Shown: piece after piece, positions 39,317 to 50,929 of the stretch
How the letters are laid out: every line of letters begins with the position of its first letter
How positions within the stretch are numbered: position 1 is the stretch's first letter
DNA from: Fidelibacterota bacterium
GTDB lineage: Bacteria; Fidelibacterota; Marinisomatia; SCGC-AAA003-L08; GCA-2689995
Reading direction: 5' to 3'
NCBI GenBank assembly: GCA_014381925.1
Contig: JACNKR010000025.1
Span: 18,506 to 82,505 of the forward strand
DNA length: 64,000 nucleotides
The notes under the pieces: model-generated
Seen by the model: only the letters and a program-made list of their open reading frames with translations
The model's database searches: none
What the model was told of the DNA's origin: nothing
Made by a program: the position numbers and the translations under genes

Positions 39317-39535
39317 TTAATACCATCTAAAATTTATGTTTGATTTTTTTATTTGTGTTGAAATTTCTTGTTCACTATCATTTTCTTCTTCTTCATAATG
39401 ATGATGAGGATGGGTACATACGAAATGTATAATTATATAACCTCGATATTTAGCAATCTCTAATACCGTTATTATCAATATTAATGGAATAATAAATGTT
39501 TTTAAAATGTATGAAAGGAGTTTAGTGGGGTTCAT
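39317..39535 (-). CDS. small single-TM protein with a His/Glu-rich tail
   Basis: Hydrophobic segment followed by HPHHHYEEEEND. Confidence 0.45.
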   Translation of the reverse strand: MNPTKLLSYILKTFIIPLILIITVLEIAKYRGYIIIHFVCTHPHHHYEEEENDSEQEISTQIKKSNINFRWY

Positions 39536-39547
39536 AATATGTTATCT

Positions 39548-42049
39548 TTAATTAAAATGATGTAAAATTGGTTTTATAAATCGAGATAATGATTTATTAA
39601 AACAAAAACCAGTAAGGGACAAAAAATATTTATTTTGAGATATTATTAATTTTTTTTTTGTTCTTGTAATTGCAACATAAAGAACCTTTGCTTGTTCTAA
39701 CATTATTTCTGAAGAATTATTTTCAGGTTTTTTAGCGTCTTCTTTTGAATAAAAACTTGGATAATTATCATCATTACAACTTGGAATAATGACTGTATCC
39801 CATTCCAGTCCTTTTGCTCTATGGATTGTTGATATAACCACAGCTTCATCTCCAATAATTAAATCAGCCTCTTTAAACCTAGAAATTATTGGCATTTGAT
39901 CTAATAAAAATTCTTTTAGGGTAGAATTTTCAACTCTCATTTTTATTAAATATCTTTTTAATTTATTTATTGAATTATTTTCTTCTATATTAAGAGGTTT
40001 GCTCCAAATTTCTATAAAATCATCTATTATATGTTTTATTGAATAATTTTCAATTAAATTATTTTCTTTTCTTGTCCAAAAATTAGAAATATTTTTGTTA
40101 AACCTAGTTATTAATTTTTTATTTTTTTGTAAGAATTCTACTCTTTTTAATTTATTTTTATTGTTCTTATTATTGAGGTAGTTAACCAATGAAATAGTTG
40201 CAAAAACATCATCAATTGCATTATGGGTTGCATTACCTTCAATATTTAATTCATTTAAAATATTTCCTAATTTATATGACTTTAATTTTGGATAAAGTCG
40301 TTTAGTTAACTCAATAGAATCAAAAATGATTCTATTTGTATCAAACTGCATACCATAGCGATTAGAAAAATGAGTCAATATATTTATATCATAATTTGAA
40401 TTATGTGCTAATAATGCATCGTTCCCAATAAAGTTTAAAAACTTTTTTATTCCAGTTTTTGCTGGTATACCATTTTCATTTAGTAAATTTAAATTTATAT
40501 TATGAATTTTTACAGTTTCACTTAATGATTTATTTGTTTTTATGTAAATATTAATTGATTTTCCACTATTACCATTAATTATTTCAGTTGCAGCAATTTG
40601 AATAATATCATCTTTTTCTACATTTAACCCAGTTGTTTCTGTATCAAAAACAATTAGTCTTTTTGAAGTAAATGTATCTTGAAATTTATTAATTATATTT
40701 TTATCTTTTAATAAAAAATCAACTGGATGTAAACCTAAATTAAACATTTCATTAATTATTTTTCGACTAGCTTTAAGAGTAGAACCTGAAAAAAGAGAAA
40801 ATATTCTCATCCAATATTATCTATTTTTTGAACCAATTAAACAATTTAGAAATGCAATTAAATCCTTAATTATTTTTCGTTGAAACAAATCAAATGAAGC
40901 AACAGGAAAATGTTTGATATTATTAACTGAACATTTATTGCTCATACTTGTAACAAGATTATTATTCGCCATTAGGATTGCAATTGGATTTTTTCCTTCT
41001 ATAATTAAAGGTTTAATATATGTTTTTAATATAAAATCAATTTCACCAAATTGATTTCCTTTATATAAATTAAAAATAATATTATTATTTTTTAACTCAT
41101 TATTCTTAGAAAATGGTTTTTCACTCCATGTCGGTTTTAGATTATTATAAGCATAGTCATTAAATAATTCTAATAAATATTGAGGAGATCTATGGTTTTC
41201 AGCAATAAAGTGTTCTTGATAAGTTTCTTTCAATTTCCTTAAAACTGAATTATCAGCACCTAAGAATGAATAAATGGCTTGTTCTGTATCACCAAACAAA
41301 ACAGTATGACAATTTTTACTTATTAGATAATTTAAAATTTCCCACTGTATGGTATTTAAATCCTGAAATTCATCTACTTGGACCCATGTATATATATTTC
41401 TAAACGTTTTATCTTTTATTAAAAAATATAATGCTAAATTCAAAATATCATTAAAATCTAATGATAAAAAATCTTTTTTAAATTTCTCATACTTTCTATA
41501 AATAATTTTTATATTTGTTTTAACTTGAATTGATTTTGATGAATAACTATAATTTTTTTCAAATATCTTTTTTGATTTTTTAACTAAATTATTTGGTAAT
41601 TTTAATTTAAGTTGATTTTGCCAACAAATAAAATTTTCTAAATCATTATTTTTTATCATTAGCATACTATCCCCATTTTCTTCAACCGATGTTTTAACAT
41701 CTTCAACGGCATCTTCAAGCAAAACTCTTGATTCACCTTCATCTAATATATTTGTTTGTTTTGGTATTAGGTTTTGTTGAAATAAAAACTTTGCACCAAA
41801 TGAATGTGAATTACCAATAAATAATTCATTAGAATTTCCAATCCGTTTTCTCATATTTAAAGCGGCATTATTTGTAAAAGTTAAACAAATCATTTCTTCC
41901 GGTTTTACACCTTTTGCCAAAGCTTGCTTCACCCTGTGAGATAACATTTCGGTTTTTCCTGATCCTGCCGGGGCAAAGACAATGTGCTTTCCTTTGGAAA
42001 GATTAATGATTTTTTTTTGCTTAACTGTCGGAATAAAGTTATTTTTCAT
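39548..42049 (-). pseudogene. UvrD/Rep SF1 helicase with an inserted DEDDh exonuclease, split by one in-frame TAA
   Basis: Track ORFs 40817-42064 and 39548-40810 are in the same frame (KNR*YWMRIF, TAA 40817-40819). APAGSGKT, VDEFQD, FDTETTG, HNAIDD, STIHRAKGLEW, YVAITR. Confidence 0.8.
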
Positions 42050-42525
42050 AAAATTTCTAGCCACCTTTTATATGCATTAGTGTTTTTAGTTTGTAATAAC
42101 CTTTTTTTGATAGTTTGGCACAATTTATTTACATTTATATCATTTAGCTCATTCCTTAAACCTGATGGAGCACCATTGATACGATACGGAGAGATTCTCA
42201 GCTTTCGAATAATTTGTGAATATTCTAAATATTCATCTGTCCCCTTTTTATTTTCCATGTTTTGATTTCTAAATTTATTATTCCGAATTCGTAATTTTGC
42301 TTTTATTAAGTCCGTAACCGTATGCGATAATTGACTTGTAATATAATAAATTAAATCACAATTAGAGATTTTTTCAATATTACAATTTCTTTCAAATCCT
42401 GTATTATGAATAAGCATTGCACCGTGCTCATGAATGACATTTTCAAATTGTTCATAACTAATTTAGTCTGTTCCTCCAACTACACCTATCTTAATTCCCG
42501 TTAAATCTGTTTTTGCTTTGTTCAT
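42046..42525 (-). pseudogene. DUF2325-like Rossmann-fold protein with an in-frame TAA
   Basis: ATG at 42525 overlaps the McrC-like TGA; MNKAKTDLTGIKIGVVGGTD*ISYEQ...CDLIYYITSQLSH; TAA at 42463-42465. Confidence 0.6.
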
Positions 42526-49767: not shown

Positions 49768-49774
49768 ATTATTT

Positions 49775-50583
49775 TTAACCTTTTTTCTTTAAATCAACAA
49801 TCTCGACCATTGCATTTGCTCCAAAAATAGCTTGATGTCCTTCCATAGTTGTTGAAAAAGGGAGATCTGAATATGGTTTAATTGCATCTGCAGTTGGATT
49901 CATATCAACTAATAAATGATAGGCAATTCCTGCACAAGTACCAGCTACAAACCCAGTTGTTAATTCTTTGTTTTTCAATTTTAGTTTATCCCAAAATGGG
50001 TCATGATTCTTGGGGAGATTTTTATGCACAATATTAACTAGCCCCACTAACGAAAATGCGACAGTTTCAATTATTAATGCAGGAAGAAGGGAGTGGGTGA
50101 ATATGGACCGATGCCTTCCAATCCCAACTTTTAAATCAGTATCAGGTATTCCACCATCGCCATCAAATCCACCACTACCAATTAAAAAACCAATAAATAT
50201 AACAAATAATTTTGGTGCATATTCTTTTGGGTTTGAAAATAAATTTGATATAATTATTTTTAAGAAATTGAAACTTGATTCAGATAATTTAACTATATTT
50301 CCTCTTGCTGAATTCCCCTGTTAATAATGTGTGTTTTTAATTTATTTTGCTGAATTGCTTTTATAGTATTGGATGTTTCTGAAGCAGTAAATTTTATAAA
50401 ACCCTCAATTGCCTTTAATAAACCTTTTGCTCTCCGTCCAGCTAATTTTAGAAATAAGATTCCAGATTCTTTACCCCATGATTTTAATTCTTCAGACGAT
50501 GTTTTATTAATTGCTCGTCTTATTTCTTCATATAGATTATCAATTCGAGTTTTTTTTATTTTAATAACTAATTCATTTTCCAT
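49775..50583 (-). pseudogene. YdjM-like membrane metal-dependent hydrolase, frameshifted
   Basis: Downstream frame is open from 50320 without a start (GDGGIPDTD, HRSIFTHS, YHLLVD) and overlaps the end of track ORF 50293-50583; 809 nt = 270 codons - 1. Confidence 0.65.
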
Positions 50584-50593
50584 TTATTTTCCA

Positions 50594-50929
50594 TTAAATT
50601 TCTTTTAATATAGATTTAATAATAATATATTTTTGCTCACAAAATTCATGGACACCACATTGATTAATCCATTCTTTATATTTTCGTCTTTCAATATCAT
50701 CATCCTGACGAAGTAAAATGAGTTCTCTATTTTTGAAAATAAATCCAATTTTAAGTACTTTAAGAATTTCAATCATTAAATATTTTGAACGAGTTTGCAT
50801 ATTACGATTAAAGAATTTTGATATTGTTGATTTATGTCTTTTTACAAGGTCTGCTAACTCTTTACGGCAAATTCCCTGTTCAAGCATTTTCTCCTCTATG
50901 ACAGTAATTATATCTTGGTCTTTATTCAT
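50594..50929 (-). CDS. XRE/Cro-family HTH regulator
   Basis: QGICRKELADLVKRHKSTISKFFN. Confidence 0.75.
   Translation of the reverse strand: MNKDQDIITVIEEKMLEQGICRKELADLVKRHKSTISKFFNRNMQTRSKYLMIEILKVLKIGFIFKNRELILLRQDDDIERRKYKEWINQCGVHEFCEQKYIIIKSILKEI

Follow-up and report, generated by a model that had tools for sequence, protein, structure and literature searches.

McrB GTPases with the signature NxD, followed by E or D, form a major branch of the McrB family (PMC11090510). According to Bell et al. 2024 (PMC11090510), the deepest group of this branch consists of fusions of Hsp70-like nucleotide-binding and substrate-binding domains (NBD/SBD) to the GTPase; in such McrB-fused domains, the "Walker A-like" motif is degenerate and the "Walker B-like" motif is usually kept. 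The same work predicts RNA targeting for Hsp70-containing relatives and reports that the McrC homologues of RNA-targeting CoCoNuTs have no nuclease motif. The McrBC systems of the NxD branch, including CoCoNuTs and the Hsp70-McrB fusions described in 2024, are abundant and have never been characterised experimentally (PMC11090510); the text supplements of that paper make no mention of Hsp70, collagen or Marinimicrobia. Here, we analyzed a 64,000-nt stretch of DNA from a Fidelibacterota bacterium (assembly GCA_014381925.1, contig JACNKR010000025.1, positions 18,506-82,505, forward strand), which is referred to in its entirety as the window. It contains a variable island of 12,044 bp (39163..51206) that encodes, among other proteins, an Hsp70-like/collagen/McrB fusion and a McrC-like partner. 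Probably, the island is a strain-variable mosaic at a recombination hotspot of marine Fidelibacterota (Marinimicrobia/SAR406-type) and not one machine, with an NxD McrBC-type pair as its core and with some of its parts decayed.

Results

The island is located between convergent core genes: a flagellin-family gene on the left (37783-39162, plus strand) and an 85-aa open reading frame (ORF) together with manC on the right (51207-52531, minus strand). According to the ORF listing, all island ORFs are on the minus strand and run from 50929 down to 39317. The original prediction, made by a model from the sequence, had placed these ORFs and named the flanks correctly; it had also read the genes as one XRE-led layered defence system that has no mobility genes and is exchanged by recombination.

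A ManC scan of species-representative genomes retrieved two relatives, a metagenome-assembled genome (MAG) with 98% ManC identity (L008) and a "Candidatus Neomarinimicrobiota" MAG with 75% (L009), the latter name mapping to the phylum Fidelibacterota of the FCB group. On either side of the island, L008 and the window are collinear (93% nucleotide identity), and 3 bp of L008 stand in place of window positions 39167-51202; in L009, housekeeping genes follow the 85-aa gene. Further alleles were collected by looking up the exact 85-aa protein in public assemblies and aligning the contigs to the window. Three states of the site were found within the same species, with flanks that are 98-99% identical: empty, occupied by the island of the window (island A) or occupied by a different one (island B). 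The empty allele (L035, flanks 98.7-98.9% identical) has only 10 nt between the 85-aa gene and the flagellin gene, and therefore the island corresponds to window positions 39163-51206. Island A was also present in L031, L033 and L036, and its sequence is identical across marine metagenomes of several studies from 2020-2025. Island B was found in L029, L030, L032 and L034. The sequence of L029/L030 is 98.2% identical to that of the window from 61464 down to 49300 and is unrelated past 49300. Thus delimited, the part common to islands A and B is a 1.9-kb leader module (49300..51206, minus strand) that consists of an AT-rich intergenic region, a helix-turn-helix (HTH) gene, a 269-aa gene, a 112-aa gene and a 40-aa transmembrane (TM) ORF.

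Library scans of the island ORFs revealed no integrase or transposase, scans of the window for tRNA and Rfam families retrieved nothing, and no repeat longer than "TAA" is common to both junctions. With neither an integrase/transposase, att or terminal repeats, nor a tRNA target, the island does not qualify as an integrative mobile element (prophage, integrative and conjugative element or transposon), in agreement with the predicted lack of mobility genes. The lack of mobility genes and of any common junction sequence beyond "TAA" lends good support to a recombinational exchange between conserved flanks. The empty, A and B alleles of one species and the 3-bp counterpart in L008 likewise bear out the claim that the region is strain-variable and non-core. 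The model can be sharpened, the 1.9-kb leader being itself one of the conserved flanks.

Downstream of the leader, island B carries genes for a TM/coiled-coil protein, a TM/coiled-coil McrB-like protein of the NxD type (GTINEDD), a DUF2357 protein, an AAA_11/AAA_12 superfamily 1 (SF1) helicase, a PLD-family protein and more genes beyond. This cargo looks like a CoCoNuT, judging from the gene set described by Bell et al. 2024 (PMC11090510). In L029/L030 (12165-20258), L032 and L034, the TM and coiled-coil protein is 315/288 aa long, the McrB-like protein 612 aa, and the DUF2357 protein, which has no obvious nuclease motif, 473 aa. The helicase of L029/L030 (12165-20258) has 618 aa, the PLD protein 593 aa, and a further protein is annotated as 751 aa.

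The cargo of island A is built around a gene (44188..47646, minus strand) for a 1152-aa fusion that comprises an Hsp70/actin-like region, a linker, a collagen-like segment and a McrB-type AAA+ NTPase. When every island ORF was scanned against Pfam, NCBIfam, PADLOC and phrog families, just four sets of solid matches were obtained: the collagen and AAA_5 parts of this protein, UvrD N- and C-terminal domains, an inserted DEDDh exonuclease (RNase_T) and phage families of unknown function for the 112-aa and 172-aa proteins. The predicted Hsp70-collagen-McrB architecture is thus firm in its last two parts, and its Hsp70 part is suggested by motif order and weak scores.

The McrB-type AAA+ module occupies residues 775-1105 (44332..45324, minus strand). 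Its Walker A (K825), Walker B (D900-E901) and signature (N958-I-D960-E) motifs are intact, with G-K825-T and D900-E901 invariant. A profile built from 16 homologues/modules and compared with PDB matched McrB from E. coli (6hz4, E 7e-11) and from Thermococcus (6ut3, E 5e-8); midasin outscored McrB in this search because it carries six AAA_5 modules. The sequence GTAN958-I-D960-E aligns with the NxD motifs of distant relatives P0002, P0006, P0018 and P0155, and is therefore of the NxD(E/D) and not of the NxxD kind. The match of PADLOC family PDC-M26A to the module (3e-21) covers only 130 residues. When 1.8 billion representative proteins were searched exhaustively with HMMER, the 1152-aa protein gave 14,968 matches, the top 150 of which are all to the AAA+ module or the collagen segment and none to the N-terminal region. 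Apart from the protein itself, a word-indexed homologue search retrieved just two distant AAA+ relatives, probably because collagen-like words overwhelmed it. Of two genome scans with AAA+ alignments, one used too diverse an alignment and the second gave patterns and no confirmed relative; a metagenome scan with the N-terminal alignment and an IMG/VR scan with the 1152-aa protein found nothing. The very C-terminus (44188-44240) is aromatic/acidic (FDMEDFDFFG) and resembles YDFF.., YDYFCW and GFASFF of distant NxD McrB homologues, so this end may be a conserved docking tail.

Residues 686-739 (45430..45591, minus strand) form 18 collagen-like G-X-Y triplets preceded by a K/E/P-rich linker (621-683); the Pfam Collagen match scores 32.9 bits against a cut-off of 27.2. 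An assembly chimera as the source of this segment was ruled out, since contigs from independent runs cover it without differences.

Residues 1-415 (46402..47646, minus strand) are predicted to be a divergent ASKHA (Hsp70/actin-like) nucleotide-binding region with a degenerate phosphate-1 position. Five motifs, IYSKPD, GEADSxYY, LDFGALTLDSTF, ITGGF and NRKLGGLGLAQY, match in order and spacing VITVPAYF, NEPTAAA, DLGGGTFD, VGGSTRIP and AVA-GAA of Hsp70, and all five are invariant between this protein and a relative (L013, see below) that is 36% identical over the region. Near-global hhalign comparison with three Hsp70s also aligned the motifs (E 0.011, with a probability of only 3.9%), and MreB-like_C was matched in Pfam with E 0.02. 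A canonical Hsp70 phosphate-1 hairpin, NEIYLGIDFGMSKTTVGV, is present at residues 581-598 (45853..45906, minus strand), i.e., after the domain. The hairpin is the longest fully conserved stretch in the comparison with L013, and the same motif begins ordinary Hsp70s. The degenerate pattern GIDFGxSKTT was searched for as well and retrieved 13 loci, all of which were ordinary Hsp70s or chance matches.

The next gene (42522..44177, minus strand), located after a 10-nt gap, encodes a 551-aa protein. Its predicted McrC-like nature is supported by position and by an intact PD-(D/E)xK motif, E353...P-D421...D439-A-K441, which is kept as far as L013 extends and recurs in this order in the PDC-M26B-like partner of P0002; the match to PDDEXK_7 (E 1.1e-3, 19.5 bits) stays below the 22.1 cut-off. 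Helices are predicted between residues 110 and 300, with a long hairpin at 231-301, in a poor model (predicted local distance difference test score, pLDDT, of 31.7). Neither word-indexed nor profile search found homologues of this protein beyond L013. A perfect 21-bp tandem duplication (43408-43448) repeats IDKVDEL in the helical stalk, and a single copy is present in L013.

Relatives of the AAA+ module are paired with a DUF2357/PDC-M26B-like partner, the DUF2357 matches there being faint or weak. Two of them, P0002 and P0003, were observed in L003-L007 within a conserved triple of genes, whose products are coiled-coil-like (311 aa), of the PDC-M26A family (668 aa) and PDC-M26B-like (593 aa). 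Next to the triple are VapE-type primase and HTH genes, suggesting that it is carried by a satellite-like mobile element. With such defence-type relatives, and with its place in the NxD branch (PMC11090510), the gene pair of island A agrees with the DNA restriction-like core that had been predicted.

The only relative of cargo A found is L013, an ENA contig of 4.8 kb in which 10 Ns interrupt the linker of the McrB fusion. In this contig, the end of a YdjM-like gene and the genes for a 93-aa Zn-ribbon protein, the McrB fusion and the McrC-like protein are tightly packed. Ratios of nonsynonymous to synonymous substitutions (dN/dS) against L013 were 0.19 for the AAA+ module (83% aa identity), 0.35 for the McrC-like protein (68-71%), 0.45 for the Zn-ribbon protein (36%) and 0.62 for the Hsp70-like region (36%). 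The motor and its partner are thus under purifying selection, and the low dN/dS of the AAA+ module next to the values of the N-terminal region points to a conserved motor with a sensor that has either evolved fast or recombined, which is what a specificity domain would be expected to do. Metatranscriptome contigs with 0-1 mismatches were found for the UvrD-N and McrC sequences, for the McrB/McrC junction (44168-44382), which a contig spans, for the AAA+ module and for the Zn-ribbon gene. Apparent "joints" in the alignment of contigs to the window turned out to be 20-24-nt matches in AT-rich sequence and not real deletions.

The downstream end of the island is occupied by a gene for a UvrD-family SF1 helicase with a DEDDh 3'-5' exonuclease inserted in its C-terminal domain (39548..42064, minus strand). 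The domains of the predicted UvrD-exonuclease are strongly matched (UvrD-helicase 1.1e-44, RNase_T 4.2e-24; PADLOC RTasHel 7e-44 and GajB 1e-39); the gene itself is split into two same-frame ORFs (415 and 420 aa) parted by TAA at 40817-40819 and two codons. Homologues in Chryseobacterium plasmid pA2BH1 and in Prevotella are single collinear genes of 860-900 aa, and since the read-through aligns collinearly with them across the TAA, the stop is a nonsense mutation. The TAA-bearing sequence was the same in contigs from 2022 and 2025 runs. Stop-codon reassignment is an unlikely cause of the in-frame TAAs, as core genes are long standard ORFs with TAA as their commonest stop. In pA2BH1 (L027, 18771-28842), the nearest intact UvrD-DEDDh helicase gene is preceded, in the same orientation, by genes for a 1612-aa "AAA domain" protein and a DEAD/DEAH helicase, and these genes may form a further defence cluster rich in helicases.

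Two genes of unassigned function border the helicase. The 123-aa protein (42046..42417, minus strand), whose gene overlaps the helicase start and which had been called DUF2325-like, has no match in any of the four libraries. The last island gene (39317..39535, minus strand) encodes a 72-aa protein with one TM helix and a His/Glu-rich tail and with no family match.

At least two genes of the island are disrupted, the helicase-exonuclease gene by its TAA and the 269-aa leader gene by a frameshift, and a 72-aa ORF located ahead of the McrB gene is probably a third, likewise with an in-frame TAA. Therefore, only part of the island is likely active. One could go further and regard the whole as a non-functional, decaying remnant of a mobile element or defence island in which McrB and McrC are merely not yet mutated. 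A frameshift and two in-frame stops within 12 kb and the phage-family small genes would fit such a remnant, as would the finding of no relatives in GTDB genomes, JGI metagenomes and IMG/VR beyond one short contig. However, ORFs of 3.5 kb and 1.7 kb have stayed open in DNA of 26% GC, dN/dS against L013 is 0.19-0.35, all catalytic motifs are intact, transcript-derived contigs exist and the sequence did not change across the studies of 2020-2025. We consider a dead remnant improbable and prefer a mosaic island in which the core pair is maintained.

The leader module begins with the gene for a probable 111-aa HTH regulator of XRE type (50594..50929, minus strand). Its matches are weak but consistent (HTH_38 E 1.1e-3, PADLOC PDC-M64C 4.3e-5, phrog_3 repressor 1.3e-3), so that "XRE-led" holds insofar as a small HTH gene does come first; the protein is 94.6% identical in island B. 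The 269-aa gene (49775..50583, minus strand) codes for a helical N-terminal part and a YdjM-like membrane part. It is intact in island B strains and split in the window by a 1-nt deletion near 50317/50318 into a 96-aa ORF (the 5' part) and an ORF with no start codon before 50047 (the 3' part), the two halves being 95.6% and 98.8% identical to the gene of island B. What had been listed as a YdjM-like hydrolase is this start-less distal half, which contains an HRSIFTHS motif and matches YdjM weakly (E 2.5e-4, below cut-off). The 3' end of the gene is also kept upstream of the L013 operon. E. coli YdjM is a LexA-regulated membrane protein. The 112-aa protein (49429..49767, minus strand) belongs to a phage-borne family of unknown function (phrog_16724, 2.9e-10) and has ~34% identity to hypothetical proteins from phages of Staphylococcus and Caulobacter. 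A 40-aa hydrophobic ORF (49306..49428, minus strand) is the final element of the common leader. The role of the leader may be regulatory or membrane-associated, with its largest gene broken in the window. A repeat scan of the leader region was uninformative in DNA of 26% GC.

Between leader and McrB gene, cargo A starts with a 71-aa protein that has a weak C2H2-like finger (zf-C2H2_4 E 4.9e-3) and an acidic tail (49090..49305, minus strand). It is followed by a phage-like 172-aa protein with three C..C..WH(L) repeats (48563..49081, minus strand; phrog_15216 1.4e-12, phrog_10414 1.2e-8); IMG/VR scans with the 172-aa and 112-aa proteins found nothing. The ATG of the next gene, for a 136-aa protein with a C-terminal CxxC...CxxC Zn ribbon (48156..48566, minus strand), overlaps the preceding stop (ATGA). 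The gene for the 93-aa homologue of this protein (40% identity over 67 aa, E 1.4e-12) immediately precedes that for McrB in L013, and the Zn-ribbon protein probably belongs with the McrB/McrC core. The last small ORF, of 72 aa, is followed by an in-frame TAA and 55 codons (47643..48032 altogether, minus strand) whose end overlaps the McrB start (ATGA), and it is probably part of a nonsense-interrupted 128-aa gene. Its read-through bears a weak likeness to the first half of a cyclic nucleotide (cNMP)-binding domain (PKG structures, E 0.04-0.25; PDB 5e16, E 0.04), in an alignment that crosses the stop; cyclic nucleotides regulate related systems according to Bell et al. 2024 (PMC11090510).

The RNase/abortive effectors of the original prediction, a BECR-like protein of 112 aa and a RelE-like protein of 72 aa, were not recovered: scans of Pfam, NCBIfam and PADLOC at E <= 0.1 gave no BECR or toxin match for the former and no RelE or other toxin match for the latter, so that neither ORF qualifies by these scans as a RelE/ParE- or BECR-fold toxin. 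This bears on the notion that all ~15 genes act as one layered defence system under common regulation, in which sensors are combined with restriction and with RNase/abortive effectors. The genes do share one strand behind a single HTH gene; there is no minus-strand terminator-like site inside the island (a scan that is uninformative at 26% GC), and many junctions overlap or are <=12 nt long. The tight coupling that had been claimed is broken by gaps of 104, 123 and 167 nt at other junctions. In island B, too, McrBC-like genes are accompanied by an SF1 helicase and a nuclease; the helicase-exonuclease could therefore go together with McrBC. Yet the leader is common to unrelated cargo, only the YdjM-like, Zn-ribbon, McrB and McrC genes recur together in L013, where the 112-, 40-, 71-, 172- and 72-aa genes are missing, no toxin or RNase domain was confirmed, and McrB and McrC are under purifying selection in an island with up to three interrupted genes. 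A single system of this extent is very unlikely, and the observations are better accounted for by a mosaic with an McrBC-type core.

Outside the island, TetR, YceI and Lgt genes are also found on the left side and a Big_5 protein gene on the right. Overall, GC content of the window is ~28%. A 1325-aa protein without Pfam domain (54127-58104) is encoded beside the Big_5 protein and manC in L008 and L009 alike. Window positions 32780-33939 (~1.16 kb), covering most of an M24 peptidase gene (32690-33871, minus strand), correspond to only 84 bp in the 93%-identical L008, which means either that the two genomes differ by a second indel or that the MAG has a gap there. The core genome also encodes a 949-aa fusion of a DEDDh exonuclease and a DinG-type helicase (21448-24297; RNase_T and Helicase_C_2). 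Therefore, the organism has a second, intact exonuclease-helicase, of another superfamily.

Discussion

The presence of three alleles at one site within a species, together with a conserved McrBC-type gene pair next to interrupted genes, is what leads us to favour a mosaic island at a recombination hotspot. How the core might work can be proposed by analogy with E. coli McrBC and with what Bell et al. predict (PMC11090510). The AAA+ modules would assemble a McrB-like ring, and the McrC-like partner would activate the ring and bring the PD-(D/E)xK nuclease for cleavage. The Hsp70/actin-like N-terminal region would serve as a sensor in place of the usual modified-DNA reader. The K/E-rich linker and the 18 collagen triplets would keep the sensors off the ring, possibly as bundles of three. 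The UvrD-DEDDh protein would be either an accessory, like the helicase-nuclease pair of CoCoNuTs, or a separate module. Since island B combines McrBC-like genes with an SF1 helicase and a nuclease, it is plausible that UvrD-DEDDh once worked with the McrBC-like pair; it belongs to another SF1 clade than the island B helicase and is interrupted.

Taken further, the fusion could represent an immune-motor architecture not seen before. A Hsp70-like sensor, with its hairpin moved past the domain by circular permutation or trans complementation between subunits, would be joined through a collagen triple helix to a McrB-type ring, the hexamer would carry two trimeric stalks, and the nucleotide state of the sensor would gate the McrC nuclease. 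We offer this picture as a speculation that is more probably wrong than right by a wide measure.

Several points weigh against the interpretation of the island as a mosaic with a working McrBC-type core. The McrC assignment is made without a significant family match, there being no relevant Pfam or PDB match for the 551-aa protein. The Hsp70-like assignment is weak, given the low hhalign probability, the lack of a match to Pfam HSP70 and the lack of a PDB match in sequence and profile searches; for the first 625 aa of the fusion and for its 551-aa partner, single-sequence AlphaFold models were unusable (pLDDT 31-32). Because the G-X-Y triplets are absent from the L013 homologue, the only relative found, the collagen segment may be a dispensable linker expansion. 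With up to three disrupted genes, the whole island may be decaying. The RNA evidence comes from Logan contigs of metatranscriptomes, in which DNA carry-over is possible. The indel may reflect either a gain or a loss. Finally, no experiment ties any NxD McrBC system, this locus included, to phage defence.

A role outside antiviral defence, in RNA/protein quality control or in a stress response with the YdjM-like and HTH genes marking an SOS-type regulon, would suit the RNA targeting predicted for Hsp70-containing relatives (PMC11090510) but is hardly to be expected from a locus that is polymorphic for presence/absence in one species and replaced there by another McrBC-type system, as is typical of defence cargo, and whose McrC-like nuclease motif, unlike that of RNA-targeting CoCoNuTs, is intact.

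If the mosaic reading is correct, the locus is a compact natural test case, with a sensor region that evolves several-fold faster than the motor and a collagen-like linker that one allele has and a relative lacks. In one species of an uncultured, globally distributed marine lineage, this site is found empty or occupied by another McrBC-type system. Defence cargo of streamlined marine bacteria would thus be swappable behind a common leader without an integrase, and parts of an island can decay while the core pair is kept.

Compared with E. coli McrBC (PDB 6hz4, 6ut6), the locus has the same order of a McrB-type AAA+ motor followed by a partner with a predicted helical N-terminal part and a PD-(D/E)xK motif. 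It differs in having NxD and not NxxD, in lacking the DNA reader (DUF3578/ADAM), in the 1152-aa length of its B protein and in a partner without detectable McrC similarity. With CoCoNuTs (CnuB/CnuC/CnuH/CnuE), island A has in common that its nearest AAA+ relatives are coiled-coil, CnuB-like proteins, that a rod is placed between the N-terminal domain and the GTPase and that an SF1 helicase and a nuclease are encoded downstream. The rod, however, is collagen-like with a disordered K/E/P-rich linker (as judged from composition, no formal coiled-coil prediction having been run), the McrC nuclease motif is intact, and the helicase is of the UvrD type (SF1A) with an inserted DEDDh domain and not UPF1-like with a separate HEPN, PLD or Vsr protein, no HEPN or PLD match being found in the island. 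For PADLOC PDC-M26, P0002 and its 593-aa partner match both the A (2.8e-42) and the B (3.1e-5) families, whereas the fusion of island A matches A (3e-21) and its 551-aa partner does not match PDC-M26B even at E <= 1. The UvrD-DEDDh protein has the domain order of collinear Bacteroidota proteins that are 33-36% identical (e.g., WP_181715756.1 of plasmid pA2BH1) and differs from them by the TAA that splits its gene. Since there is no GajA (ATPase-TOPRIM) and no reverse transcriptase among the island ORFs, the locus is neither Gabija nor DRT.

The Hsp70-McrB fusions (PMC11090510) are a further close counterpart, with which the fusion described here shares the NxD(E) signature, a putative N-terminal Hsp70-type region, a degenerate phosphate-1 and a kept phosphate-2 motif and a candidate McrC-type neighbour, a likeness judged from motifs and published description. 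The differences are an N-terminal region beyond Pfam/PDB detection, a hairpin after the domain, a collagen-like linker and a marine Fidelibacterota host. As Hsp70-McrB fusions, the diversity of NxD McrBC systems and defence hotspots have already been described, the locus is not a new kind of system. What is new is the collagen-like segment in a McrB-type protein, the displaced phosphate-1 hairpin, the extreme divergence of sensor and partner, and, in an uncultured marine lineage, the swap of cargo behind a common leader between two NxD McrBC-type systems.

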